Shown: positions 6,548 through 18,465, counted from the stretch's first letter. The stretch: DNA of 32,000 nucleotides from Alkalilimnicola ehrlichii MLHE-1 (GCF_000014785.1 NC_008340.1:870001-902000); one strand, 5' to 3'. The notes: a model not told the origin generated them from the letters alone. A program made the numbers and translations.

Positions 6548-8430
6548 GCGGTTGCCTCCAGGATCGATGTGATGGCGTCTTCGATTCGGCCCACCTTGAA
6601 GGGTTGGCCCGTGACCTGCCCCAGGCTGCGGGCGTCGATCCCGAAACGGGCCCGCAGGACGTTGACCAGTTGGCCATTGTTCAGCTCCGGGACCAGGACG
6701 TGGTCGTAGCGTCCGAGCAGTTCGCCGAGGTTGGCCGGGAAGGGGCTCAGGTAACGCAGGTGGATATGGTCCACTGCGCTGCCTTGCGCACGCGCGCGGT
6801 GAACGGCCTGGTTGAGCGCACCGTAGGTGGAGCCCCAGCCCACCACGGCGAGGCGACCGTCACCGTCGCCCGCGGCCACGGTCTGTGCCGGGATGTCCCG
6901 GGCGATGCCGGCGACCTTGGCCGCGCGGGCATCCGTCATGCGCTGGTGGTTTTCCGGTTCATAGGCGATGTGGCCACTGCCCTCCGCCTTCTCCAACCCG
7001 CCGATGCGGTGCTCGAGGTCGGGTGTTCCGGGCCGTACCCAGGGTCGGGCACCGGTGGCCGGGTCCCGTTGGTAGGGTTGGAAGCCTTCGGGGTCGTCGG
7101 TGCGGAAATGGACCGGAAAGTGCGCCAGGCCGTTCACATCGGGCACCCGCCAGGGCTCTGCGGCGTTGACCAGATAACCATCCGCCAGCACCATGACCGG
7201 GACCATATAGCGGGTCGCCAGGCGCACGGCCTCCACCGCCACCTCAAAGCAGTCCCCGGGGGTGGCGGCCGCCAGCACTGCGAGCGGGGCATCGCCGTGC
7301 CGCCCGTAAAGCGCCTGGTAGAGGTCGGACTGCTCGGTCTTGGTGGGCAGGCCGGTCGAGGGTCCGCCACGCTGGCAGTTGACCACGACCAGCGGCAGCT
7401 CGGCGCTGACCGCCAGCCCGAGGGCCTCGGTCTTCAGGGCGATGCCGGGGCCGGAGCTGGCCGTGACCCCCAGGGCACCGCTGTAGGAGGCACCGATCGC
7501 GGCACAGGCGGCGGCGATCTCATCTTCGGCCTGCAACGTCCGCAAGCCCTCGCATTCGATATCGGCCATCAAATGCAACAGGTTGGACGCGGGGGTGATG
7601 GGGTAGGAGGCGAAAACCATGGGCAGGTCCGCCCGGGCCGAGCCCGCCAGCAGCCCCCAGGTCAGCCCCTCGGCACCGGTCACGGTCCGGTAGAGACCGG
7701 GGGCGCGCTGCCGGGGTGCCACCGCTCGCCGGGGCAGCGTGGCGCCGAGTTCCGCCGTCTCGCCGTAGGCGTGGCCCGCCAGCAGCGCCGCGCGGTTGGC
7801 CTCGCGCAGGCGGTCACGGGCTGCGAACTTCTCGTCGATCCAGGTCAGCGTGGCCGCCGGGTCGTGGCCGTACATCCAATAGGTCAGGCCCAGTGCCCAG
7901 AGGTTCTTGCAACGCAGGGCCTCGGCCTGGGAGAGACCGAAGGGCTTGACCGCCTCCTTGGTCAACCGGGCGATATCCAGTTCAATCACCTGGAAGCCAT
8001 CGAGGGTGCCGTCATCCCGCGGGTCCTGTGCGTAGCCGGCCTTGGCCAGGTTGCGCTTGGAGAAGCCACCGCTGTTCAGAATGACCGTACCCGCCGCTGC
8101 CAAGTCCGGCAGATTGACTGCCAGTGCGGCCGGGTTCATGGCCACCAGGACCTCCGGGGCATCGCCCGGGGTGGCCACGCGATCAGCCCCAAACTGGATC
8201 TGAAAGGACGACACGCCGAAGGGGGTCCCCGCCGGTGCCCGGATCTCCGCTGGAAAACTGGGCAGGGTGGCGAGATCATGACCGGCCATGGCCGTGGTTC
8301 GGGTGAATTGGCTGCCGGTGAGCTGCATGCCATCGCCGGAGTCGCCGGCGAATCGCACCACCACCGCGCGGTCGGTGGACGCTGCGGTGGTGAGGGTGGC
8401 GCTGGTGTGGTCCTGCTCCTGCTGGGGCAT
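6544..8430 (-). CDS. korA: 2-oxoacid (2-oxoglutarate):ferredoxin oxidoreductase, alpha subunit
   Basis: 628 aa counted from the second Met (MPQQEQ...), which follows GGAGGA by 6 nt. Fused gamma/alpha-type domains (RFAGDSGDGMQLTG..., ASYPITPAS..., GGPSTGLPTKTEQSDL). Confidence 0.9.
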   Translation of the reverse strand: MPQQEQDHTSATLTTAASTDRAVVVRFAGDSGDGMQLTGSQFTRTTAMAGHDLATLPSFPAEIRAPAGTPFGVSSFQIQFGADRVATPGDAPEVLVAMNPAALAVNLPDLAAAGTVILNSGGFSKRNLAKAGYAQDPRDDGTLDGFQVIELDIARLTKEAVKPFGLSQAEALRCKNLWALGLTYWMYGHDPAATLTWIDEKFAARDRLREANRAALLAGHAYGETAELGATLPRRAVAPRQRAPGLYRTVTGAEGLTWGLLAGSARADLPMVFASYPITPASNLLHLMADIECEGLRTLQAEDEIAAACAAIGASYSGALGVTASSGPGIALKTEALGLAVSAELPLVVVNCQRGGPSTGLPTKTEQSDLYQALYGRHGDAPLAVLAAATPGDCFEVAVEAVRLATRYMVPVMVLADGYLVNAAEPWRVPDVNGLAHFPVHFRTDDPEGFQPYQRDPATGARPWVRPGTPDLEHRIGGLEKAEGSGHIAYEPENHQRMTDARAAKVAGIARDIPAQTVAAGDGDGRLAVVGWGSTYGALNQAVHRARAQGSAVDHIHLRYLSPFPANLGELLGRYDHVLVPELNNGQLVNVLRARFGIDARSLGQVTGQPFKVGRIEDAITSILEATA

Positions 8431-8701
8431 GACATCTCCTCCGGGCATAGTGACGACTCACTCGAATCCGATGCAGGCTCCCGGATTCGAGAAGGCCAGC
8501 CTACTCGGAGAGGCTTGCTCCGACAAAGACTATAAAGACGTATTTTTATCTCTCCGGGTTAGGATGGGCCCGGCGCAGGCTGGGGGCGGCCGCGGTGGTG
8601 CCCAGGCGGATGACCGACGGGACGGGTGACGGGGTGGTGGAGGTCCGGGCCTCCAGGGGTACGCCGACCAGCAACGATAGCCGAGCGCTGCGAGCGGGCG
8701 T

Positions 8702-8808
8702 CAGACAAGAAAAAAGCCGCCCCGGTAACCCCGTAAGCGGCTGTTTTTCTTTGCTTTGTCTGGTAGGCGCGAGTGGACCCGAACCACCGACCCCCACCAT
8801 GTCAAGGT
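8702..8808. repeat. attL: 107-bp direct repeat (copy A) of the tRNA-Val 3' half plus its terminator
   Basis: Identical to 17698-17804 except at two positions (8732 C vs 17728 G; 8779 C vs 17775 T). Confidence 0.9.
8761..8808 (-). pseudogene. Displaced 3' fragment (positions 30-77) of tRNA-Val(GAC)
   Basis: Copy of the anticodon loop through CCA of the intact gene at 17757-17833, with no 5' half. The T-loop reads TTCGGGT instead of TTCGAGT (conserved A58 changed to G). Confidence 0.85.
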
Positions 8809-8902
8809 TTCATAGAACCCCCGTGCCATGCGGGTCACAGTAATAAAAACAGAAAGATAGGCGTGTTACCAAGGAATGGTAGGGTTCTGTTGTGAAAGAT
8901 TG

Positions 8903-8932
8903 TGGTACCATGATGGTCACAGATTGGTCACA
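8903..8932 (+). promoter_or_regulatory. Putative arm-type recombinase/RDF binding sites, attL arm
   Basis: TGGTACCA(8903) tga TGGTCACA(8914) gat TGGTCACA(8925): three octamers phased at 11 bp between attL and the int start. The 23-nt string GATGGTCACAGATTGGTCACACG is repeated exactly at 17657-17679. Confidence 0.6.
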
Positions 8933-8947
8933 CGGGAGCCTGTCGCC

Positions 8948-10282
8948 ATGCCCGCCAAAACACTGGACACCAGCATTACTGATGCCGCCACCCGGCGCTT
9001 CCTGAAGAATGAGCCGGAGCGGGCAACCTTATGGTGTGAGCGGATTACCGGGTTTCACATACTCAAGGTAAAGACCGGGGGCAGTTGGCGGTATCGGTAT
9101 CAGACCGCAGACGGTAAGCGCCGCGTGGCCACCATCGGGCGCTATCCGGCCATGAAACCGCAGCAGGCCGCCGAGAAGGCACTAGCCTGGCGCAATGAGA
9201 ACGTGGACGCGCTGGCAGTAAAGGCCAAACGCACCCGCAATGCCTTGACCGAAGCGCAGAAGGCCGAGCAACGCACGCTGCGGGCCTATCTCGAAGGGCC
9301 GTACGCTAGGTACCAGGAGCGCAAGCGCAGCGGCGCGGAAACCCTGCGCCTCATTCGGCACAACTTCACCGACTGGCTAGACCGGGACATGGCCACGTTG
9401 GACAGCGCAGACGTGAAGGCGTGGCAGGCCAAGCGTGAAGCCGAGGGCCGGGCATACTCCACGCTGCAACGCGCCTATGGTGCGCTGAAAACGGCCCTGA
9501 ACCGCGCCGCGAAACATGACGACCTGCTAGACGCGAACCCCCTGCGAGATGTTCACCTTGAGGCCCCACGGTTTGACGAGGTGGACAAGCAGGTAAAAGC
9601 GGAGCAGACCGCCCGCCGCCTGCTGAGTGACGAGGAAGTGACCGGGCTGCATGAGGGCTTGCGAGCCTTTGCGGATGAGTTGCGCCGCCAGCGCCGTAAC
9701 AGCCGAGCGCATGGCAAGCCGGATCTGCCCGACCTGGACGCGGTGGACTACCCGCATTGGTTTATTCCTTTCTGCCACGTTGCCCTTTATACCGGACTGC
9801 GACCGGGTGACTTGTACGCGCTCACCTGGGCGGAGCTGAACCCCACGTTCGGGCGGCTGAACGTGATTCCTCAGAAAACCCGTCACCACCGCAACCCCGC
9901 CCGCGTGACAATGGATTTAGTGCCGGAGTTGCTGGAGGTGGTGCGGGCCTGGTGGGCGCAGCAGGGCAAGCCTGACACCGGGCTAGTGTTCCCCTCACCC
10001 GTTACCGGCTTGCGGATGGACAAGAAAGCCCACCTGAAAGCCTGGCGACGTGTGAAGCGCCTTGGTGGGCTGCCCGACGATCTGGACTTCTACACCTTGC
10101 GGCACAACTTTATTTCCAAGCTGGTGGCCGCTGGCGTGCCCCTGCTGACAGTGGCGCAACTGGTGGGCCACAAATCGGCGGGGATGATCGAACAACATTA
10201 CGGCGACCTGTGCCCCACCGTAGCGGCTGATGCGTTGGCCGTGTTTTCCAAGTCTGTGACACCGAAGCAGGAGGCGGTATGA
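8948..10282 (+). CDS. int: Tyrosine integrase, P4-type (N-terminal DUF4102 arm-binding domain)
   Basis: N-terminus ...ATRRFLKNEPERATLWCERITGFHILKVKTGGSWRYRYQTADGKRRVATIGRYPAMKPQQA matches the P4-integrase arm domain pattern. Catalytic signature TGLRPGDL ... YTLRHNFISKL ... LVGH ... EQHY. Start taken at ATG 8948; the ORF-track start at 8876 runs over the arm sites. Confidence 0.9.
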   Translation: MPAKTLDTSITDAATRRFLKNEPERATLWCERITGFHILKVKTGGSWRYRYQTADGKRRVATIGRYPAMKPQQAAEKALAWRNENVDALAVKAKRTRNALTEAQKAEQRTLRAYLEGPYARYQERKRSGAETLRLIRHNFTDWLDRDMATLDSADVKAWQAKREAEGRAYSTLQRAYGALKTALNRAAKHDDLLDANPLRDVHLEAPRFDEVDKQVKAEQTARRLLSDEEVTGLHEGLRAFADELRRQRRNSRAHGKPDLPDLDAVDYPHWFIPFCHVALYTGLRPGDLYALTWAELNPTFGRLNVIPQKTRHHRNPARVTMDLVPELLEVVRAWWAQQGKPDTGLVFPSPVTGLRMDKKAHLKAWRRVKRLGGLPDDLDFYTLRHNFISKLVAAGVPLLTVAQLVGHKSAGMIEQHYGDLCPTVAADALAVFSKSVTPKQEAV

Positions 10283-10797
10283 CGGCAGGATGGGCAACCC
10301 CGTTTAACTGGACGGATGAGCAGGCCCGCGAAGTGGTGGCGGAGGTTGGCGAGCGCACGGGCACGCAGGAGCAGCGGGAGCAGTTCGCCCGCGCAGTGGG
10401 AGCAGTGCTGAAGCGCGGCCAAACGCGGCTGTTTATGCCCGACCTGGCAGGCCAGGCCAAGGGCATGCACCAGGGGGCAGCCACGGTACTAGAATCGCTC
10501 AACGCCGAAGCGGCTGACCTTACCGACGAGGAAGCCGACCAGTTGCGTGCGCTGGTGGCTAAGGTGGCGGAGGCCACAGCCGAGGCGGGCACGATGGAGC
10601 GGCGGGGAGCCAGCAAGAAAGACCACCAGACCCTAGCCGAGCTGGCGCAGGTATGGCGCTTTGCGTTCGGGCGCTGGCCAAGTGCCAAGCCCACCGCCCC
10701 CTTCATGCGCGTGGTGCTGTGGATCAATGCACGAAATTACGCCGATCTGCCGACCGGAAACGGCGCTAAGGCTTATATCGGCCAGGGGACCAAATAA
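10279..10797 (+). CDS. Hypothetical protein, translationally coupled to int
   Basis: ATG 10279 overlaps the int stop (ATGA) and is preceded by AGGAGG (10269-10274). 172 aa, acidic and helical, no motif I recognise. Followed by an AT-rich stretch. Confidence 0.6.
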   Translation: MTAGWATPFNWTDEQAREVVAEVGERTGTQEQREQFARAVGAVLKRGQTRLFMPDLAGQAKGMHQGAATVLESLNAEAADLTDEEADQLRALVAKVAEATAEAGTMERRGASKKDHQTLAELAQVWRFAFGRWPSAKPTAPFMRVVLWINARNYADLPTGNGAKAYIGQGTK

Positions 10798-10875
10798 ATA
10801 ATTTTTTCCGGTGACGCCCGTTTTTCCGCCCCTTAGTTCAATGGCCCTACGTTCACAAACGCGAGGGCCATATTC

Positions 10876-11064
10876 ATGTCAGCACAACCCGCCTTTATGC
10901 GGCCACAACAGGCCGCCGATTACCTGGGCATTACGCGCCGCCACCTGTACAACATCGCGGAGCGTGACCCCGAGTTTCCCCGCAAGATTGTATTTTCTAC
11001 CCGCTGCGTAGGGTGGCGCCGGGAAGCCATCGACGAATGGCTAGCCGCCAAGGAGGCGGAATGA
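10876..11064 (+). CDS. alpA: AlpA-family helix-turn-helix regulator / excisionase-like protein
   Basis: 62 aa. RPQQAADYLGITRRHLYNIAERDPEFPRKIVFSTRCVGWRREAIDEWL is the typical Phage_AlpA pattern. Confidence 0.8.
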   Translation: MSAQPAFMRPQQAADYLGITRRHLYNIAERDPEFPRKIVFSTRCVGWRREAIDEWLAAKEAE

Positions 11065-11255
11065 CCTGGATCACCCCCCACGCTGCCGTGTCCGAATACG
11101 GCATCCCCTTGGAGCGTATCGAGGCCGCCATTCTGGCCGGTGAAATAGCCGTTCGGGTGGCGTGCGGTGCGCGGGTGATTGGCCGCGCCGAGGTGGAAGC
11201 GCTTCGATTGAAAATGATGAGCGAACGCCGGGAGGCGTGCGACGGATGCGACTAG
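11061..11255 (+). CDS. Second small excisionase/MerR-like HTH protein
   Basis: ATG 11061 overlaps the alpA stop and is preceded by AAGGAGG. 64 aa. ...AVSEYGIPLERIEAAILAGEI... resembles excisionase-type HTH proteins. Confidence 0.55.
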   Translation: MTWITPHAAVSEYGIPLERIEAAILAGEIAVRVACGARVIGRAEVEALRLKMMSERREACDGCD

Positions 11256-13249
11256 TAAATGAAAACGCCCCCGCCGGCGGGCAACCGGCGAAGGGCGCAA
11301 ATGTGAGCGGGCGGCTCAATGGGAATTATAGCAGCACCGACACCGCCGCGCATCTTGCCGAAAACGGTATTCCGGTATTCCCGGTAAACCTGTCCGAGCC
11401 GAATGCAGACGGGAAACGGGAAAAGACCCCGTTAACAAAGCATGGCCATCTCGACGCCACAACAGACGCCGAAACGGTGCGGCAATGGTGGCGGCGTTGG
11501 CCGAAAGCTATACCCGCTGTTCCGACTGGGAAGGCATCCGGCATTGATGCCCTGGACGTAGACCCCGACGGTTACGAATGGGCCGCCGAGCATTCCGATT
11601 CACTGATGATGGCCCAGCGCATTCACCACACTGAGCGCGGAAAGCATTACCTGTTTCGACACACCGATGGCGTGCGCAATTCCAACGGGAAGATTAGCGC
11701 CGGTATCGATGTGCGCGGGGAAGGCGGGTGGATCGTCTGGTGGCCTGCAAAGGGCCTAGAAGCGCATGGAGAGCTTGCAGACGTATCCGACGCACCCGAA
11801 GCCCTTGCCGATCTGATGCGTGGCGTGCGGAGCAGCACAGAGCGTGACAGCGCTCCTGTTGCTGCCGATGGGGCCGTGATTCCCGAGGGCCAACGGGATA
11901 GCACCTTGACACGGGAGGCCGGGCGACTGCGCCGGTATGGCTACAGCGAATCGGAAATGCTGGCCGCGTTGCACGCGATCAACTCCCACCGTTGCCAGCC
12001 GCCGCTAGACGCCGATCAAGTGGAGAAGATTGCCCGAAGCGTTGGCCGATACGATCCGGCGCATGAGTTCACGCCAGACAGCGATGAACCGGCCAGCCCT
12101 GAGCCGTTCGACCTTGTGGCGGCCAGTGTGGGCGATCTGATACGCACGCCACCGCCGCCCCGCCGTTGGCTGGTGCATGAGCGCCTGCCGCTGGACGTGG
12201 TGGCCCTGCTGGCGGCTGCTGGCGGTACGGGTAAGAGCATGGCCACCTTGCAGCTCGCGGTGAGCACCGCCACCGGCTGGCCTTGGTTCGATATGGAGAT
12301 CAGCGAGCCGGGGGCGGTGCTGATGGTGTCGGCAGAGGATGACCGCGACGAAATCCACCGCCGCCTGTCCGTGGTGCTGGAGCATTACGCCGACGATGCC
12401 GACCCGTTCGCCGTTGACGCGTTCAGCGAGTACCACGACCAGCTAGAGCGCCGCCTGTTCATTCTGGACAGGGTGGGCGAGGACAACCGCCTAACCGCCA
12501 AGATCGACCGGGAGACGTTGCGCACGGGGTTTGCCAATCGGGTGATTGCCACCGCCGAGGCGATGCCCGAGCCGCCCGTGATGATCGTGCTTGATCCCCT
12601 GAGCCGGTTCGATGGTGGCGACCCGAACGACAACAGCGACGGAACCCGCTTGATCGAGGCCGCCGAGCATATCCGCAAGGCCACGCGGGCAACCGTGCTG
12701 CTACCCCACCACGTCGCCAAGTCCAGCATGAAGGATTCCAGCGCCGGACAGGAGGCCGTGCGCGGTGCGTCGGGCCTGGTGGATGGTGCCCGGTGGGTGG
12801 GCCTGATGCGCGGGATGAATGACGAGGACGCGAAGGAGCACGGGATCAGCGAGGACGATGCCGGGCGCTATGTGCGCTTCAACACCCCGAAAGCCAACTA
12901 TTCCGCCCCGTGGCCCGGTCTGTGGCTGGAGCGGCGCAAGGGTGGGGTGTTGGCGGCCACGCACCTGAAGCCGCAAAAACTGGCCAACAAGGAGCGCAAG
13001 GCCGATGCGGAATATCAGGAGGTGGTGCGCCGTATCACCAAGCTGTTGCAGGACAAGGGGGCGATGCCCAAGCGCCGGATTGAGGACGAATGGGGCGGGA
13101 CAACCAACGTCTTGAAGGCCGGGCAAAAGCGCGTGCGCGACACCATCCACCGGGCGCTAGACGAGGGGCATCTCGTGGTGCAGACCACCGGCGAGGGCAA
13201 GGAGGTTATTGGTGTCCCCGACGCCTGGTTAGAGAGGGCCGGGCAATGA
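11246..13249 (+). CDS. Bifunctional primase-polymerase / PriCT / AAA_25 (RepA-like) replicase
   Basis: Start taken at ATG 11246 (MRLVNEN...). PrimPol N-domain: GIPVFPVN...KTPLTKHG..DAT...WW...VPTG..SGIDALDVD. PriCT-1-like: IPEGQRDSTLTREAGRLRRYGY...CQPPLDADQVEKIARSV. Walker A: AAAGGTGKS. Confidence 0.85.
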   Translation: MRLVNENAPAGGQPAKGANVSGRLNGNYSSTDTAAHLAENGIPVFPVNLSEPNADGKREKTPLTKHGHLDATTDAETVRQWWRRWPKAIPAVPTGKASGIDALDVDPDGYEWAAEHSDSLMMAQRIHHTERGKHYLFRHTDGVRNSNGKISAGIDVRGEGGWIVWWPAKGLEAHGELADVSDAPEALADLMRGVRSSTERDSAPVAADGAVIPEGQRDSTLTREAGRLRRYGYSESEMLAALHAINSHRCQPPLDADQVEKIARSVGRYDPAHEFTPDSDEPASPEPFDLVAASVGDLIRTPPPPRRWLVHERLPLDVVALLAAAGGTGKSMATLQLAVSTATGWPWFDMEISEPGAVLMVSAEDDRDEIHRRLSVVLEHYADDADPFAVDAFSEYHDQLERRLFILDRVGEDNRLTAKIDRETLRTGFANRVIATAEAMPEPPVMIVLDPLSRFDGGDPNDNSDGTRLIEAAEHIRKATRATVLLPHHVAKSSMKDSSAGQEAVRGASGLVDGARWVGLMRGMNDEDAKEHGISEDDAGRYVRFNTPKANYSAPWPGLWLERRKGGVLAATHLKPQKLANKERKADAEYQEVVRRITKLLQDKGAMPKRRIEDEWGGTTNVLKAGQKRVRDTIHRALDEGHLVVQTTGEGKEVIGVPDAWLERAGQ

Positions 13250-13458
13250 GCGGGCAGCGGGCAAGCAACGGGCAACGGGCAAGCGGGCAAATTGCCCGCC
13301 GGAAGTGCCTGCCCGCCTTAGAGCGCACAACCACGCGGGTTTCCAGCGGGCAACGGGCAAAACCCTACTTTGCCCGCGCCTATCGGGAAACCCGCGCCAC
13401 ACAAGGGCGGGCAGCGGGCAACGGGCAACCCCCTACGGGGGCGGGGCAGTAATTGCCC
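13241..13458. repeat. Iteron cluster, putative origin of replication
   Basis: At least 17 copies of GGGCA(A/G) / its complement TTGCCC / CTGCCC, mostly as (A/G)CGGGCAA. Sites seen at 13241, 13252, 13259, 13270, 13277, 13285, 13292(rc), 13309(rc), 13348, 13355, 13370(rc), 13409, 13416, 13423, 13444, 13453(rc). Two palindromes: GCGGGCAAATTGCCCGC and GGGGCAGTAATTGCCC. The cluster starts at the replicase stop codon. Confidence 0.65.
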
Positions 13459-13532
13459 GCCCCAACGGGTTGCGGCCTGAAAGCGCCGCAATACCCCCGG
13501 TGGTTCATGGATCAACTGATGAGGAACACCCC

Positions 13533-13727
13533 ATGCGAAACGACGAAGGCACCACCCTGGCCGCGCAGATCCTTGTGCAGATCGAGCAGGCGCAGTTAGC
13601 AGGCGTTCACCCCCATGACGTGACGCGGGCACTGTCCGCCACGCTGATGGAGACAACGGCGAAGGGAGACGAGGACCGGGTGGCATCGGTGCTGCGGGCA
13701 ACGGCGGATGCACTGGTGAGGCGGTGA
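13533..13727 (+). CDS. Hypothetical small protein (64 aa)
   Basis: ATG 13533 lies 6 nt after GAGGAA. Helical sequence with no recognisable motif. Confidence 0.4.
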   Translation: MRNDEGTTLAAQILVQIEQAQLAGVHPHDVTRALSATLMETTAKGDEDRVASVLRATADALVRR

Positions 13728-13884
13728 AGGTGTTACGAAAGGTAACGCTTGCGCTCGAATCAGCCGCCGGTGGCGGGGCAGGGAGGCCCTAGACCCCCAC
13801 AGAACGAAAGACCCGTACCCTAATGGGGTAGGGTTAGGGAATTGTAAGTACCTGTTTGTGAATGCAATAATGCCGCCACCGTGG

Positions 13885-13908
13885 TATGCTGTGACCAATA
13901 TGTGACCA
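13885..13908 (+). promoter_or_regulatory. Possible extended -10 promoter (TGGTATGCT) overlapped by an operator made of two phased TGTGACCA octamers
   Basis: TGnTATGCT at 13882-13890. TGTGACCA at 13890-13897 and 13901-13908 is the reverse complement of the arm-site octamer, with the same 11-bp phasing. Located about 20 nt upstream of the ATG at 13930. Confidence 0.4.
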
Positions 13909-13929
13909 CCAGCGGAAACTATCACGGCA

Positions 13930-14301
13930 ATGGGCACCACCACACAAGGCAAACCGCGCCAGATACCCCGGCAATACTCCAACGATTGGTTGGAGCGCCT
14001 GGACGGGCGCACGGCGATTGCCAAGGCGGTGAATGATCGCCTTCATCATTTGGTGCGTGACCTTGGAGGCCCCGACGCCCTCAGCTACCAGGAGCAAAGT
14101 ATCTGCCGCCGCATTGTCTGGCTGGAGGCGCAGATAGAAAGCCGGGAGGTGGCGCTAGCGAAGGGTGAGGATGTAGACGAGGCCCGCCACGTTGCCAACA
14201 TCAACACGCTTACCGGGTTGCTGAAGGCGGTGGGCCTGGAGCGCCGCTCGAAAGATGTGCCCGACCTTGCGCAATACCTGGCCAGCAAGGAGGCGGGCTA
14301 A
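13930..14301 (+). CDS. Hypothetical protein; terminase small subunit suspected from position only
   Basis: 123 aa, helical (LDGRTAIAKAVNDRLHHLVRDLGG...LSYQEQSICRR...). Lies two genes upstream of TerL. No diagnostic motif. Confidence 0.35.
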   Translation: MGTTTQGKPRQIPRQYSNDWLERLDGRTAIAKAVNDRLHHLVRDLGGPDALSYQEQSICRRIVWLEAQIESREVALAKGEDVDEARHVANINTLTGLLKAVGLERRSKDVPDLAQYLASKEAG

Positions 14302-14537
14302 TGGTCATGTGCGCTGCCTGTAAGCACTTCCCCGGCAACGGCCAACTGTGTCCGAAGGCCAAGCGCCACGCCACGCACCACCCGCGCAAGTGTGACAAAT
14401 TCACCGGCCACCGCCTGAGCTTCGCGGTGCTGCAAGCCCGTTCCCTCGCCACGTTCGCCCGCCGCCACCTGACCCCGGCCAGTTACCAGCGGGTATTGCG
14501 CGATGCCCACCGTCTGGCGGAAGAGGTGAGGCGATGA
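14301..14537 (+). CDS. Small Cys/His-rich protein (putative zinc-binding)
   Basis: 78 aa. C4-x2-C7-x9-C17-x13-C31 with a His-rich stretch (RHATHHPRKC). Start overlaps the upstream stop and the stop overlaps the TerL start. Confidence 0.45.
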   Translation: MVMCAACKHFPGNGQLCPKAKRHATHHPRKCDKFTGHRLSFAVLQARSLATFARRHLTPASYQRVLRDAHRLAEEVRR

Positions 14538-16063
14538 CCAACATTGTCGAAGCCTTCACCGACCCGCAGTTGCTAGGCCAGTCGTTTGGCGAGGATACCC
14601 GCGAGGCTTGGCGTGCTGTCCTGTCAGGCGCGTTCGCCCTGCCGATGGATGATGACCGCCTTGCCCTGTTTAAGCGGCTGTCAGGCGACCGTGAGCCGCC
14701 TCAGCGGCAGGCGCGGGAGCTATGGGCAATCGCGGGTAGGCGGAGCGATAAGACCCATACCGCAGCCGGTATTGCCGTATACCTGGCGACCATCGGGGCG
14801 GAGCTGGACGGCACCCTGGCCCGCCTGACCGCTGGCGAGCGTGGTGTGGTTCAGTTGCTTGCGGTGGATCGCCAACAGGCCAAGGTTGCGCTTGGGTACG
14901 TTCGCGGCCTGTTCGCTGATAGCCCGGTCATGTCCAGCCTGGTGGAGAAGGAGAACACCGAGGGCGTTTTGCTCCGCAACGGCGTATCTATTGAGGTGGC
15001 CACCAACAGTCACCGGGCCGTGCGTGGGCGCACTCTGTTGGCGGCCATTCTGGACGAATGCGCCTTCTTCAAGGATGAGGCGACCGCAACCCCCGATGTA
15101 GAGGTTTACCGCGCCCTGGTGCCTTCTCTGGCGACCACCGGGGGCATGCTTGTCGGTATCTCCAGCCCCTACGCCCGCCGGGGGCTGCTCTACAGCAAGT
15201 GGCGCAAGCACTACGGCAAGCCCGGTGATGTGCTGGTGGTGCAGGGCGGAACACTGGACTTCAACCCCACCCTTGATCCCCGCGTTATCGCGGAGGCGGA
15301 GCAGGATGATCCCGAGGCGGCCAAAGCCGAATGGCATGGGCAATTCCGTGCTGATGTTGAGGGTTTTGTAACACGCGAGGCCGTAGACGCCTGCACCGCA
15401 CCGGGCCGCATTGAGCTACCGCCGGTGGCTGGCGAGCGGTACACGGCCTTCGTGGACCCGTCTGGTGGCTCCAAGGATGCGTTCACGCTGGCGATCGCCC
15501 ACCAGTCTGATGGGCTGACCGTGGTGGACGCTATCCGCGCTCAGAAACCGCCGTTCAGCCCGGAGGCGGTGGTTAAAGAGTTCGCCGGTCTGCTGAAGGA
15601 ATACAAGATCAGCAAGGTGGTGGGCGATCGTTACGGCGGTGAGTTTCCTCGCGAGCTGTTCCGAAAACAGGGCATTGCCTACAAGCTATCTGATCGGCCT
15701 AAGTCTGACCTGTATCGCGACATGCTCCCGTTGCTCAATTCTGGGCGCGTGGAGTTGCCGGACAATGGCCGATTGCAAAACGAATTGACGAGCCTGGAGC
15801 GGCGCACCAGCCGCGCCGGGAAAGACTCAATAGACCACCCGCCAAATGGCACCGACGATGTGGTTAACGCGGTGGCCGGGTGTATAATTGAGGCAGCAAA
15901 ACCCAAAGCCGTTCCCCGCGTGCGGCGGATGGGTGATTCGATCAGTTCCGGTTCCAATTCTGGTTCCAGCGTTCTGGATCGAATCGCGCAAGGTCAGAAA
16001 GCCAGCGGGAGGTTGGCGAGTACGCGCCGAAGTTTTCTGCGAGATGCAGACGGTTTCGGTTGA
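14534..16063 (+). CDS. terL: Phage terminase, large subunit
   Basis: Walker A-like AGRRSDKT, Walker B LAAILDECAF. C-terminal RNaseH-like nuclease motifs FVDPSGGSKDAFTLAIAH and DDVVNAVAG. GAGGTGAGG RBS precedes ATG 14534. Confidence 0.85.
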   Translation: MTNIVEAFTDPQLLGQSFGEDTREAWRAVLSGAFALPMDDDRLALFKRLSGDREPPQRQARELWAIAGRRSDKTHTAAGIAVYLATIGAELDGTLARLTAGERGVVQLLAVDRQQAKVALGYVRGLFADSPVMSSLVEKENTEGVLLRNGVSIEVATNSHRAVRGRTLLAAILDECAFFKDEATATPDVEVYRALVPSLATTGGMLVGISSPYARRGLLYSKWRKHYGKPGDVLVVQGGTLDFNPTLDPRVIAEAEQDDPEAAKAEWHGQFRADVEGFVTREAVDACTAPGRIELPPVAGERYTAFVDPSGGSKDAFTLAIAHQSDGLTVVDAIRAQKPPFSPEAVVKEFAGLLKEYKISKVVGDRYGGEFPRELFRKQGIAYKLSDRPKSDLYRDMLPLLNSGRVELPDNGRLQNELTSLERRTSRAGKDSIDHPPNGTDDVVNAVAGCIIEAAKPKAVPRVRRMGDSISSGSNSGSSVLDRIAQGQKASGRLASTRRSFLRDADGFG

Positions 16064-16104
16064 TTGATGAAAGCGGGTTTTCACTTCAACCGAGGTAACG
16101 AGTT

Positions 16105-17244
16105 ATGACGCATCAAGTGAAGGAAATGGTCGAGGGCGTGGCCCGAGACTTCGAGGGGTTTAAGTCCCGCCAGGATCAAGCCCTGTCCGACCTGGACGAG
16201 CGCGTGAAGCGTGCCGAGACCCTGGCCGCCCGCAAGGTGGGCATGACCGTGGACAGCGGCGCAGGCATGGGGCCGGAGACCAAGGCGGTACGCGAGTGGC
16301 TGCGTGGTGGCGACTTCGACCGCAAGGCCCTGAGCATCGAGGATGACGGCCAAGGCGTGACCGTGCGCAGCGATTGGGCGGATCAAATCTTTAAGAAGAT
16401 TCGCGAATCCAGCCCCGTCCGCCAGGTGGCTAATAACCTGTCCACCAATTCCAACGAATTGGAGGTTCTGGTTGACCGTGGTGAACCGGACTCAGCGTGG
16501 GTGGCTGAAAAGGGCGACCGCGATCCGACTGCCGCTAGTTTCATGTCTCGGCATAAGATCGCCGTGCATGAGCACTACTCGTATCCGAGCGTAACCCAGC
16601 AATTCCTGGAGGATAGCCGGCTCGACCTGGAGCAGTGGTTGCAGGATAAAATCGGCACCCGTTTCGGTCGGCAGGAAGCCGAATCCTTTATCAAGGGTGA
16701 CGGCAACGGCAAGCCTCGCGGCATTCTGGATTACGACACCGTGCCGGATGGTGATTTCGAGTGGGGCGCTGATCCTGCCGATTACACCATCGGGGCGATC
16801 TATACCGGCGAATCGGGTGACTTCCCGAGCAACAATCCCGATAACGTGCTCTACGATGTTGTGGACGCGCTCAAGTCGGATTACCTGGGCAATGCACGGT
16901 TCATGATGAGCCGCGCCACGATGAACAAAATTCGGAAGCTGCGGGATGGTGACGACCGTGCCTTGCTCCAGATGAGCCTGGCGGAAGGTCGGCCCAATAC
17001 CCTGCTGGGGTTCCCGGTGGTGATTGCCGAGGATATGCCGGACCCGGCGGCGGATTCCGAGTCGATCCTGTTCGGTGACTTCGGCCAGGCGTACACCATC
17101 GTTGACCGGATCGGGGTAAGCGTGCTGCGTGATCCCTACACCCTGCCCGGCTGGGTCCGCTGGTACGTCCGCAAGCGTATCGGCGGGGCGCTGACCAACC
17201 CCGAAGCCCTGAAGGCCGTGGTGTTCGGCAGCGAGCCGAGCTGA
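16105..17244 (+). CDS. Major capsid protein, HK97 family, with N-terminal coiled-coil (delta/scaffold-like) segment
   Basis: 379 aa. N-terminal helical region (KEMVEGVARDFEGFKSRQDQALSDLDERVKRAE), then the typical HK97-family core (...IFKKIRESSPVRQVANNLSTNSNELEVLV..., ...GKPRGIL..., ...MSRATMNKIRKLRD...). Confidence 0.85.
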   Translation: MTHQVKEMVEGVARDFEGFKSRQDQALSDLDERVKRAETLAARKVGMTVDSGAGMGPETKAVREWLRGGDFDRKALSIEDDGQGVTVRSDWADQIFKKIRESSPVRQVANNLSTNSNELEVLVDRGEPDSAWVAEKGDRDPTAASFMSRHKIAVHEHYSYPSVTQQFLEDSRLDLEQWLQDKIGTRFGRQEAESFIKGDGNGKPRGILDYDTVPDGDFEWGADPADYTIGAIYTGESGDFPSNNPDNVLYDVVDALKSDYLGNARFMMSRATMNKIRKLRDGDDRALLQMSLAEGRPNTLLGFPVVIAEDMPDPAADSESILFGDFGQAYTIVDRIGVSVLRDPYTLPGWVRWYVRKRIGGALTNPEALKAVVFGSEPS

Positions 17245-17400
17245 TGAACACCGCCCGCTCCCGAGGCGGCAATATCGGGAGAGTTCCCCGCAGCCACCGC
17301 GGCGGCGCAAGCCGACAGGGTGGACGCGGCAACGCCCTGGCCGTGTCTCAGAACAAGGGCGGGCGGTATGGTTCCACCGCTGCGAAGAGACGGACCCACG

Positions 17401-17433
17401 CCCCCGAGCGAGAGGCTGCGGGGGCATCTTTTT
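17401..17433 (+). terminator. Intrinsic terminator after the capsid gene
   Basis: CCCCCG(17401-06)...CGGGGG(17419-24) stem followed by CATCTTTTTG. Confidence 0.5.
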
Positions 17434-17449
17434 GTATGGAGGTGCAACC

Positions 17450-17697
17450 ATGCTGACAGCCGAGGAACGTCTATGGGTGGCCGCACTGGCCCGGTATGTA
17501 CAGGACGCCCGTGCGCCCAGTGCCTACGGTGACGAGGGCGAGGCGCTGGCGGACCTGGAGGGCGATGCCGTGATACTGCGCCGCCTGGCGGAGCTGGCGG
17601 GCTATGACCCCGAGGCCACGGTGGTGGCGGTGAGGCGGGAGGTGTTGTGTTACCCCGATGGTCACAGATTGGTCACACGAAGCCCTGAGCGTGTGAC
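17450..17697 (+). CDS. Hypothetical protein (possible head-completion/adaptor); the 3' end is undefined because the frame has no stop before attR
   Basis: ATG 17450 lies 6 nt after GGAGGT. The frame stays open through the arm sites, attR and the tRNA until 18217. The end coordinate given is the element boundary, not a stop codon. Confidence 0.35.
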
Positions 17698-17699
17698 CA
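17648..17699 (+). promoter_or_regulatory. Putative arm-type binding sites, attR arm
   Basis: TGTTACCC(17648) cga TGGTCACA(17659) gat TGGTCACA(17670), with the same 11-bp phasing as at attL. One inverted octamer TGTGACCA (17692-17699) abuts the identity block. Confidence 0.6.
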
Positions 17700-17804
17700 G
17701 ACAAGAAAAAAGCCGCCCCGGTAACCCGGTAAGCGGCTGTTTTTCTTTGCTTTGTCTGGTAGGCGCGAGTGGACTCGAACCACCGACCCCCACCATGTCA
17801 AGGT
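17698..17804. repeat. attR: 107-bp direct repeat (copy B), forming the 3' half and terminator of the functional tRNA-Val
   Basis: See attL. The block ends 2 nt 5' of the anticodon loop (tRNA position 30). Confidence 0.9.
17705..17745 (-). terminator. Intrinsic (bidirectional-looking) terminator of tRNA-Val
   Basis: AAAAAA-AGCCGC-CCCGGTAACCCGGTA-AGCGGCT-GTTTTT. The stem is AGCCGC/GCGGCT with an inner CCGG/CCGG pair. A-run and T-run flank it, and the minus strand reads the stem followed by TTTTTT. Confidence 0.75.
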
Positions 17805-17833
17805 GGTGCTCTAACCAGCTGAGCTACGCGCCT
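17757..17833 (-). tRNA. tRNA-Val (anticodon GAC)
   Basis: The reverse complement reads AGGCGCGTAGCTCAGCTGGTTAGAGCACCACCTTGACATGGTGGGGGTCGGTGGTTCGAGTCCACTCGCGCCTACCA. Acceptor AGGCGCG/CGCGCCT, D arm GCTC/GAGC, anticodon stem CCACC/GGTGG with loop TTGACAT, T arm GGTGG-TTCGAGT-CCACT, encoded CCA. 77 nt. Confidence 0.95.
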
Positions 17834-17852
17834 GTCGTGTTCGACGAGCGGT

Positions 17853-17880
17853 ATTGTACCGTGTTGTCGGTGGTTGTCAA
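17853..17880 (-). promoter_or_regulatory. Sigma70 promoter of tRNA-Val
   Basis: The minus strand reads TTGACA (17880-17875), a 16-nt spacer, then TACAAT (17858-17853), about 20 nt upstream of the tRNA 5' end. Confidence 0.75.
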
Positions 17881-17989
17881 AGGACGCGGGATTGGGCTGG
17901 GGCTGGCCGGGAGGGGACGAACGCGGTCGAACTGCGAGGGGTGGGTCGGTGCTGTGGTTTTCAGCGCGGCCAGGCGCCTGACCCGTTCT

Positions 17990-18023
17990 GAAAACCCGTT
18001 TGCGGAGGCGGGCCCCCGCAAAC
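17990..18023 (-). terminator. Candidate intrinsic terminator of the small peptide gene
   Basis: Stem GTTTGCGG (17998-18005) / CCGCAAAC (18016-18023). On the minus strand it is followed by GGGTTTTC. Confidence 0.45.
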
Positions 18024-18040
18024 GAATGCTTCACCTGCCC

Positions 18041-18151
18041 TTAGAGCAGGCCGCCCAGCAGGCCGGTGCTGCCCAGCAGGCCGTTCACCAGTTCCAAGAC
18101 CGGGTTCAGGATCCCCAGCAGCACTCCAAGCAGATCATTGACCAATTCCAT
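18041..18151 (-). CDS. 36-aa Leu/Gly-rich hydrophobic peptide (not in the ORF track because it is under 60 aa)
   Basis: The minus strand has AAGGAG, 7 nt, then ATG GAA TTG ... CTC TAA = MELVNDLLGVLLGILNPVLELVNGLLGSTGLLGGLL. A hairpin terminator lies downstream and an AT-rich promoter region upstream. Confidence 0.5.
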   Translation of the reverse strand: MELVNDLLGVLLGILNPVLELVNGLLGSTGLLGGLL

Positions 18152-18465
18152 GACGTTACTCCTTGTTTCCCGTATGGGTGGAAAAGGCCCGCACATCTAT
18201 TATTATGCAGGCACTGAAAGCGTACGGTATGTTGTTTCGTTGCGGAATATTGTTTTAGTGCTAGTCGGTGTTAGTGGTTTGTTTGTAGGCATTATCATAA
18301 TAATTTAATGATTATCGGGCGGCGTTTGAGTTGAATAAAATGCCCATCTTTTATGGGTTCCGGTTGGTCCGTAACGCATTGGCTCATCTCCGTTGCGGCG
18401 AGTCATGCTCGGGGCCAGAGGGGCGCTCACCGGGGCCGGAGCAGGGTGGGACCGCACGCCGTTTG

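Follow-up and report, generated by a model that had tools for sequence, protein, structure and literature searches.

A 32,000-nt stretch of the Alkalilimnicola ehrlichii MLHE-1 genome (NC_008340.1:870001-902000; the whole stretch is referred to here as the window) carries an integrated element at positions 8702-17804. The original prediction for this locus, made from the sequence alone, was of a satellite-like element in a tRNA-Val gene, encoding a large terminase subunit (TerL) and an HK97-fold major capsid protein (MCP), and with no portal, protease or tail genes. The element is bounded by 107-nt direct repeats at 98% identity, and the size delimited by these repeats is 8,996 bp. The right copy (attR, 17698-17804), located by direct-repeat comparison, overlaps the integration target, an intact tRNA-Val(GAC) gene predicted on the minus strand (17757-17833). 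The repeat thus spans 48 nt at the 3' end of the tRNA and a further 59 nt beyond it, in which a terminator-like hairpin lies, and the left copy (attL, 8702-8808) holds the displaced 3' part of the tRNA together with the hairpin downstream of it. Every credible gene between the repeats lies on the plus strand, as had been predicted for a co-directional set bounded by such repeats. Host genes for a 2-oxoacid:ferredoxin oxidoreductase lie in the left flank, and host genes for UDP-glucose dehydrogenase and Wzi/Wza/Wzc capsule export lie in the right flank; G+C content is ~0.68-0.70 in the flanks versus 0.59-0.66 within the element. Integration, regulation, replication and packaging/capsid modules are all present, and a candidate iteron origin adjoins the replicase gene.

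Packaging, capsid and replication genes of the element

The late module consists of a TerS-like gene, a small cysteine-containing open reading frame (ORF), the TerL and MCP genes, and one last small ORF. TerL (14534-16063, plus strand) has an ATPase and an RNase H-like nuclease domain and is recognised by PHROG_2 (6e-23), with no Pfam match above threshold. It keeps every residue that is invariant in 25 homologs: K73 of Walker A, D174-E175 of Walker B, D308, D365 and D441-D442. A TerL profile also matches nuclease domains of large terminases in the PDB (E 0.006). Some homologs (P0008, P0010 and others) have a precomputed weak match to PF27249 (MJ0330_N); this family was not reported in the Pfam scans carried out here, and a literature search on it returned nothing.

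The MCP (16105-17244, plus strand) belongs to the HK97 family (PF05065, 1e-84; TIGR01554, 2e-91, over model positions 37-385). It is full length, carries an N-terminal delta (scaffold)-like region, and keeps all conserved HK97-family positions in the alignment. The ratio of nonsynonymous to synonymous substitution (dN/dS) is 0.20-0.21, indicating purifying selection. Profile matches thus support both the TerL and the capsid calls of the original prediction. The delta-like region is shorter than in phage Bcep176 and in L154, a phage-like contig described below. The MCPs of the ~9-kb elements that carry no protease share an insertion of ~20-25 residues (DGDFEWGADPADYTIGA...), at residues ~215-250 of the window MCP (alignment columns ~301-340), which is absent from the MCPs of the protease-carrying loci L083, L087 and L090 and of L154; the delta-like region of protease-less elements is also shorter.

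Upstream of TerL, orf123 (13930-14301, plus strand) encodes a 123-aa protein that is a candidate small terminase subunit. In 102 of 154 loci of the lineage TerL is preceded by a homolog, with a median gap of -3 nt, and this TerL-adjacent position and coupling are as expected of a small terminase. The AlphaFold2 (AF2) model of orf123 is all-helical with a long helical hairpin (mean predicted local distance difference test score (pLDDT) 74.5). Foldseek searches of PDB and BFVD with this model return HK97 TerS and many entries named terminase small subunit, all at E>0.3. A 69-sequence profile finds nothing relevant among PDB sequences, and hhalign against Bcep176 TerS gives a probability of 0.1. 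Synteny and fold type are the whole basis of the assignment, and the protein is called TerS-like here, not TerS. Between orf123 and TerL, and overlapping both, orf78 (14301-14537, plus strand) encodes a 78-aa protein read from its sequence as a Cys4 (CxxC...C...C) protein, with four cysteines and no H-N-H motif. Its dN/dS is 0.09 against L002, a decayed relative described below. It is optional in relatives, some of which have an ORF of 46-103 aa at the same position.

Downstream of the MCP gene, a terminator-like hairpin with a T run (17400-17434, plus strand; -21.3 kcal/mol, z = -1.9) probably ends the late operon. An ORF at 17244-17456 crosses this hairpin and is probably not a gene. The last small ORF (17450-17697, plus strand) is 93% identical over its N-terminal ~67 aa to the homolog in L001, a sibling element in another A. 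ehrlichii strain. It has no stop within the element, staying open through the octamers described below, attR and the antisense of tRNA-Val (17450-18217); once circularised, it would terminate at 8843-8848, and conservation with L001 is limited to the first ~67 codons.

Pfam, PHROGs and NCBIfam revealed no portal, protease, connector, tail or lysis family in any ORF of the element. With a virion gene set this incomplete, it would be unable to make particles by itself. Unassigned ORFs reach 172 aa at most and non-coding gaps measure 283, 202 and 205 nt, and thus a portal cannot hide in the element. This agrees with the original statements that the gaps are about 285 nt or less, leaving no room for a portal, and that portal, protease and tail genes are absent, profile searches of all small ORFs being empty. 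A hidden protease is very unlikely, given an all-helical, low-confidence model of the 172-aa protein. The search was extended with phmmer, using the portal, protease and adaptor of Bcep176 and L154 against all ORFs of all loci collected. A portal beside TerL was recovered only in L154, L120 and L160, and a protease only in L083, L084, L087, L090, L131 and L154; L085, retrieved by an MCP query, also has a portal. No portal is recovered from the MCP-type loci with a portal hidden Markov model based on L154, L085 and L120. The P4 hijacking genes sid, psu, delta and ash/epsilon have no Pfam or PHROG match in any ORF. Among eight proteins tested for defence functions there is no significant PADLOC match, orf123 giving a sub-threshold one to Cas4 (E 0.003).

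The left part of the element encodes integration, regulation and replication functions, all on the plus strand. The P4-type tyrosine integrase (8948-10282) matches Phage_integrase (PF00589, 9e-19), Arm-DNA-bind_3 (PF13356, 6e-8) and PHROG_1 (1e-48); its ORF opens at 8876, with the ATG at 8948 as the likely start. The start of orf172 (10279-10797), a 172-aa protein with no family assignment, overlaps the integrase stop. BLAST detects no similarity between this protein and the post-integrase ORFs of the other elements in the comparison, and its AF2 model, made from the single sequence, has a pLDDT of 58. The post-integrase slot is variable: relatives hold a gene there, and the 12 proteins compared represent unrelated families. 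An AlpA-family helix-turn-helix (HTH) regulator, which is an excisionase candidate (10876-11064; PF05930, 6e-9; PHROG_66, 5e-9), is followed by an 80-aa ORF (11013-11255) and by a replicase with PrimPol (PF09250, 7e-22), PriCT_1 (PF08708, 2e-22) and AAA_25 helicase-like ATPase (PF13481, 1e-50) domains (11246-13249). The replicase ORF opens at 11162 and its likely start is the ATG at 11246. Family and profile matches thus bear out the integrase, AlpA, PrimPol-PriCT-AAA_25, TerL and HK97 MCP calls made originally. A second HTH protein had also been proposed; the ORF at 11013-11255 exists and is conserved in L001 (90% identical to a 63-aa ORF), but it has no family match in Pfam, PHROGs or NCBIfam, and the HTH part of the proposal lacks support. 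A further ORF of 64 aa (13533-13727) has no match in Pfam, PHROGs, NCBIfam or PADLOC scans.

Directly after the replicase gene lies an iteron cluster (13239-13460), the candidate replication origin, in which the iterons foreseen earlier can be counted as 16 GCGGGCAA-like octamers within ~220 nt (both strands, at most one mismatch). Another octamer, TGGTCACA, occurs in eight copies in the window versus 0.86 expected, and none of 100 shuffles reaches eight. One pair with 11-nt spacing lies just 5' of the likely integrase start (8914-8932, plus strand) and may provide arm-type or regulator sites; three copies, two direct and one inverted, lie just inside attR (17659-17699). Phased octamers inside both ends had been taken to indicate that the ends are native, and this view holds; at both ends the paired TGGTCACA copies have a spacing of 11 nt. 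A third pair, inverted and also with 11-nt spacing (13890-13908, minus strand), was absent from the original prediction. It is a candidate operator, placed 22 nt before the orf123 start and directly after a sigma-70-like promoter match (13842-13871, plus strand; TTGTAA-18-AATAAT with TG) in the sole AT-rich stretch of the element. Promoter-like matches are not commoner than chance in this region, and the site is a candidate late promoter by its position alone. As TGGTCACA is found just inside both att sites and upstream of the TerS-like gene, a single DNA-binding protein probably couples integration and excision with late-gene control.

Relatives of the module and the wider TerL lineage

A module of TerS-like gene, TerL and MCP without a detected portal is present at 29 loci, of which 11 have gene context (the window, L001, L003, L009, L013, L166-168 and L172-174) and 18 are further metagenome loci located by MCP peptide patterns. 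In all 11 context loci the MCP gene directly follows TerL. These include elements of Thiomicrospira sp. ALE5 (L009, 9,294 bp, in tRNA-Leu), Aliidiomarina iranensis (L013), Thioalkalivibrio sp. AKL12 (L172) and Roseinatronobacter bogoriensis (L173), an 8,978-bp circle from Halomonas isolate reads (L166, Logan ERR12049894), and four metagenome contigs (L003, L167, L168 and L174). Copies that are delimited, circular or near-complete measure ~8-9.5 kb. The module loci differ in integrase, in replicase type (PrimPol-AAA_25, AAA_25 or DUF3987) and in target site, which excludes vertical copies of a single deletion. Thus, the homologs do not all carry a longer head/tail module; the same compact set recurs, consistent with the original view of a satellite-like element and not a deletion remnant. 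None of the refuting conditions set out with the original prediction, all of which were checked, was borne out. The close relatives come mainly from haloalkaliphilic and saline taxa (Alkalilimnicola, Thioalkalivibrio, Thiomicrospira ALE5, Halomonas, Salinisphaera, Spiribacter, Aliidiomarina and Roseinatronobacter).

Six contigs are circular, as judged from terminal direct overlaps: L101, L103, L131 and L151 (IMG/VR, 8.1-9.7 kb), L166 (8,978 bp) and L021 (15,468 bp). In L021, L101, L103, L131 and L151 the overlaps are 60-141 nt, so these are circular or terminally redundant. Both an integrase and TerL are encoded by L101 and L103, which is what excised forms would carry. L166 encodes the TerS-like protein, TerL, MCP and a PriCT_2-DUF3987 replicase and no integrase, and may be an episomal or plasmid-like variant.

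The sibling L001 is inserted in tRNA-Glu and measures 9,485 bp between 45-nt repeats. Its integrase differs from that of the window and its replicase is of the DUF3987 type; its late module, of the same kind as in the window, consists of a 119-aa TerS-like ORF, a 78-aa ORF, TerL, an MCP 91% identical to that of the window, and a small ORF. L002 is a decayed copy in the same strain as L001, disrupted by an insertion sequence (IS) and with a broken MCP gene. The IS (DDE_Tnp_1) lies between its replicase and TerS-like gene (7400-9088), and two toxin-antitoxin pairs, PhdYeFM/YoeB and ParE/RHH, are found just downstream (13820-14832). Several MCP paralogs occur per A. ehrlichii genome; the MCP of the window, like orf123, matches an MLHE-1 protein at 100% identity, and the second copy in MLHE-1 is represented by protein P0131. 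The window and L002 are 97% identical in DNA over 14289-15391 (orf78 and the ATPase half of TerL), and the window and L001 are 91% identical over 15353-17650 (the nuclease half of TerL, MCP and the last ORF). Elsewhere, the aligned parts amount to 223 nt (region of the 80-aa ORF) and 69 nt (end of the TerS-like gene) for L001, and 67 nt for L002. The switch of identity from L002 to L001 places a recombination breakpoint within TerL, between its two domains. To judge from these alignments, the co-resident sibling elements are mosaics that have recently recombined.

The lineage to which this TerL belongs is large. Among 1.84 billion representatives searched with a profile, 4,294 clusters (50% identity) match at E<=1e-30; species genomes, chiefly of Alpha- and Gammaproteobacteria, contain 397 loci, and IMG/VR has another 104. 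Among 50,697 GenBank phage genomes there are eight matches, all at or below 29% identity. The MCP also forms a group apart, with the best 120 relatives all at least 48% identical; phage relatives such as Bcep176 are ~32-40% identical among the matches listed. Every member of the MCP group with a readable neighbourhood adjoins this TerL lineage. The converse does not hold, as among 171 TerL-lineage loci ~16 have this MCP, 3 have a portal and 141 have other genes downstream. In TerL similarity, elements with and without the MCP are intermingled, at 64-70% identity. On the basis of these comparisons, what unites the wider family is the conserved TerS-like/TerL pair, and the MCP is one of several interchangeable add-ons.

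Elements of the lineage that lie in tRNA genes and are delimited by repeats fall into rough size groups of 9.0-9.7, 10.4-12.3 and 13-20 kb. In L004 (9,485 bp, tRNA-Leu), with a TerL 66% identical to that of the window, six ORFs of 78-198 aa replace the MCP gene. Beyond the end of the element, L030 and L035 have tRNA-Leu and then host queA, tgt and secD; L004 shows the same order of tRNA-Leu, tgt and secD, with queA not recognised. The genes after TerL differ among the three, with the small ORFs of L004, ORFs of 126, 186 and 328 aa in L030, and a 261-aa helical protein in L035. In locus L042, a different motif, GATAGGTA, repeats the layout of sites at the left end, at the right end and upstream of TerS. 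The larger relatives (12-20 kb, mostly from Alphaproteobacteria) carry odd, partial structural sets after TerL, with no portal detected: TerL, head protease, MCP, a 124-aa ORF and tape-measure protein in L083 (11748-17293); TerL, baseplate hub, tape-measure protein and Neck1 without MCP in L012 (11444-16405); a DUF2213 protease in L055 (6170-7015); and a tail-fibre protein in L008 (12754-14721). Tape-measure or hub proteins encoded by satellites would be unusual.

The 54-kb viral contig L154 has a TerL 41% identical to that of the window, followed by portal, gp7-like, endonuclease-like, protease, MCP, adaptor and Neck1 genes. With this canonical phage order, the TerL lineage has true phage members. 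Gene order thus suggests a reduction series that can be read from phage through TerL-protease-MCP elements to TerL-MCP elements, with L083 showing the intermediate order, and the L154 order points to the source and the likely type of helper.

Known satellites and competing explanations

As defined by SatelliteFinder, a phage-inducible chromosomal island (PICI) has an integrase, an AlpA-type (AlpA/Stl/MerR) regulator, a primase-replicase, a capsid-morphogenesis gene and TerS, and only tail, holin, portal and head-tail connector/attachment genes are forbidden (PMC10085698). The element has integrase, AlpA and primase-replicase in the required order and no forbidden components; its capsid gene is the HK97 MCP, compared with the SatelliteFinder set by description, and its TerS candidate is orf123. 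Three of the five defining components are clearly present, the HK97 MCP would count as the fourth, and orf123 may be the fifth, TerS. The element resembles Gram-negative PICIs such as EcCICFT073 in size (~9 kb versus a reported PICI median of 9.5 kb; PMC10085698) and in the co-directional order of integrase, accessory slot, alpA, primase-replicase and packaging/capsid genes. It differs from PICIs in having a complete TerL, so that a helper TerL is not needed, a full HK97 MCP, and TerL and MCP lineages of its own.

Capsid-forming PICIs (cf-PICIs) such as EcCIEDL933 are ~15 kb, encode portal, head maturation protease, adaptor/connector and HNH nuclease, and borrow tails only (10.1101/2022.09.08.507074). 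The element is like them in having its own MCP, TerL and probably TerS, satellite-specific TerL and capsid clades, and no tail genes (10.1101/2022.09.08.507074). It differs in lacking portal, protease, adaptor/connector and HNH nuclease, and portal vertex and maturation would thus come from a helper. At most six of the 11 cf-PICI core components are present, whereas the loosest reported class has nine, and cf-PICI identity is rejected.

The nearest precedent for terminase and capsid genes without a portal is found in phiRv1 and phiRv2 of Mycobacterium tuberculosis and in related mycobacterial 'candidate PICIs'. The phiRv elements are integrated, measure ~10 kb and encode an integrase, a primase, a terminase, a protease and an HK97-type capsid. 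They are not known to have a portal or tail, or to be mobilised. They differ from the element in their actinobacterial hosts, in that prohead protease, which the element lacks, and, for phiRv1, in a serine integrase. Two papers, PMC10085698 among them, regard both as PICI-like. PICI-like tycheposons are small and tRNA-integrated, with tyrosine recombinase, primase/helicase and a packaging gene, and some have an MCP (10.1101/2020.12.28.424599). They carry terS or MCP and not the TerS/TerL/MCP set, and their integrase family is different (10.1101/2020.12.28.424599).

P4-like satellites share with the element a P4-type integrase with an arm-binding domain, AlpA, a primase-helicase replicase, a tRNA site and a size of ~9-11 kb. 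P4 remodels the P2 capsid by means of an external scaffold, and it is not known to have terminase or MCP genes. With no homologs of sid, psu, delta or ash detected, the element is not P4-like in its hijacking genes. VEIMEs (virion-encapsidated integrative mobile elements), which encode no MCP, are rejected as a match, as are phage-inducible chromosomal minimalist islands (PICMI) and PICI-like elements (PLE), both ruled out on gene content. The 'twilight' mini genomes of Aguilar et al. 2025 are below 11.6 kb and have an HK97-fold MCP, integrase and replicase without portal or tail (10.1101/2025.06.18.659913). The present family is similar in its ~9-kb circular or directly terminally repeated genomes. 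The main 'twilight' clade differs in coming from the human gut and having encapsulin-like MCPs and no terminase, whereas the present family has a PF05065-type MCP plus TerL and, among the members identified here, comes mostly from saline or alkaline Proteobacteria. The original claim that the element fits none of the known classes, and so represents an undescribed strategy, is thus overstated: the element is neither a cf-PICI nor P4-like in its hijacking genes, but it has most of the PICI components, and phiRv1/phiRv2 and the MCP-bearing tycheposons are precedents. No description of a TerS-like/TerL(+MCP) family was found in the literature, of which coverage was partial, and an earlier description is possible.

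Taken together, the element is best read as an intact PICI-like satellite of a distinct, widespread lineage. The explanation preferred for its late module, held with moderate confidence, is that of a helper-dependent satellite using its own terminase and MCP with the portal of a helper. Several points weigh against it. Prophage genes are absent from the 32-kb window, no helper phage has been identified, and a literature search for one was empty. The identification of orf123 as TerS is not statistically significant by fold or by sequence, and the circular contigs, assembled from material of unspecified fraction, are not proven virions. Docking of TerL on a foreign portal and cleavage of a delta-bearing MCP by a foreign protease are only plausible, and for every member induction, excision and packaging are inferred from sequence alone. 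Furthermore, most relatives in the TerL lineage have no MCP, which may therefore be dispensable for transfer.

The last point also favours a competing explanation, in which the MCP co-assembles with or poisons the helper MCP, redirecting capsid size or interfering, and transfer depends mainly on the private terminase and helper capsids, possibly with concatemers. The 141 MCP-less loci carry unrelated genes at this position (230-300-aa helical proteins, DUF2213 protease, tape-measure, hub and neck genes), their TerLs are interleaved with those of MCP-bearing elements as described above, and concatemer packaging that leaves the capsid unremodelled is known from other marine satellites (PMC9618062). 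However, the MCP of the element is full length, keeps its delta region and the conserved HK97-family positions, and is under purifying selection; its clade is separate from phage MCPs, as in cf-PICI capsids, which fits a self-sufficient shell protein better. An MCP that only modifies helper capsids is thus considered rather unlikely. Far less probable is a decayed prophage from which portal, protease and tail genes were deleted. Such a remnant could be suspected from the gene order, which is like an HK97-like head module (Bcep176, L154) minus portal and protease, and from the clearly decayed sibling L002. Against this, the att copies and tRNA are intact, all ORFs are intact and tightly coupled, and replication is of the satellite or plasmid type and not the phage type. 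The recurrence of the compact architecture at 29 loci in different genera, the MCP dN/dS of ~0.2, the retained TerL residues, the circular copies and the recent recombination together mean that a deletion remnant is effectively excluded.

Two further explanations are each given very little credence. In one, the element would be an autonomous, minimal HK97-fold virus or capsid-forming element, tailless, portal-less and helper-free. A TerL-type motor of tailed phages works through the portal vertex, and genes for lysis, adsorption and ejection are absent, both of which speak against autonomy; circular contigs of 8-9.7 kb belonging to the family are present in IMG/VR and speak in its favour. So does the reported frequency of complete-looking HK97-MCP genomes below 11.6 kb without portal or tail, of which non-marine saline biomes gave more than a size-control group did; however, the main portal-less 'twilight' clade is without terminase and is thus a different kind of entity (10.1101/2025.06.18.659913). 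In the other, the locus would be an integrative plasmid-like or defence island with TerL and MCP as anti-phage decoys or interference proteins. Satellites commonly interfere with their helpers, and L166 is circular, without integrase and present in an isolate. Nevertheless, the PADLOC scan of eight proteins gave only the sub-threshold Cas4 match of orf123, the catalytic residues of both TerL domains are invariant, and TerS-like protein and TerL are translationally coupled across the family, as expected of a working packaging enzyme.

Proposed life cycle and significance

As a helper-dependent satellite with its own terminase and MCP, the element would be excised by its integrase while a helper phage grows; AlpA would probably serve as directionality factor or activator, as it does in Gram-negative PICIs. 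The PrimPol-helicase would replicate it from the iterons, and the late operon would be expressed from the promoter at ~13842-13871, guarded by the same octamers that flank the att sites. In HK97-type assembly the delta region serves as scaffold until the prohead protease cleaves it off. The MCP, with its shortened delta scaffold, would assemble on the helper portal into shells sized for ~9 kb, and, in the absence of a protease in the element, would be matured by that of the helper. TerL needs a portal and the element has none, so the predicted TerS-like/TerL holoenzyme would recognise and package satellite DNA only, through the helper portal, and the helper would supply head-completion proteins, tail and lysis. 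A small shell is plausible, although unproven, as 9.0 kb is below 11.6 kb, the limit that defines the 'twilight' range beneath the known HK97-fold viral genomes (10.1101/2025.06.18.659913). For this small size class, an earlier publication reported that no tailed-phage capsids were known (PMC7762592).

A broader and more tentative proposal is that of a superfamily of 'terminase-carrying' satellites, comprising thousands of TerL clusters in hundreds of proteobacterial genomes, with sizes of 9-20 kb. Its members would share an invariant private TerS/TerL holoenzyme and form virions that are chimeric between satellite and helper, with swapped structural sets: the MCP by itself, a protease together with the MCP, or genes for tape-measure, hub, neck or tail-fibre proteins. 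The MCP-only subtype would place the satellite MCP on a helper portal to give ~9-kb capsids.

What is new here is a PICI-like lineage defined by a private terminase, in this case with an MCP-only capsid module, and the family is apparently unnamed. P4, SaPIs (Staphylococcus aureus pathogenicity islands) and PLE reshape the capsid protein of their helper, and cf-PICIs bring a whole head. If the preferred explanation is true, head assembly would be split here unlike in every studied satellite, with shell and motor the satellite's own and portal vertex and protease borrowed. It would provide a natural system for the specificity of MCP for portal, TerL for portal and protease for scaffold, for the control of capsid size, and for very small HK97-fold capsids filled with DNA. 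That so large a TerL lineage is almost absent from sequenced phages suggests that many genes annotated as phage terminase or capsid, and some 9-kb 'complete viral genomes', belong to satellites, with consequences for the annotation of prophages and viromes. It would also add a probably abundant vehicle of gene transfer in soda-lake, marine and soil Proteobacteria.

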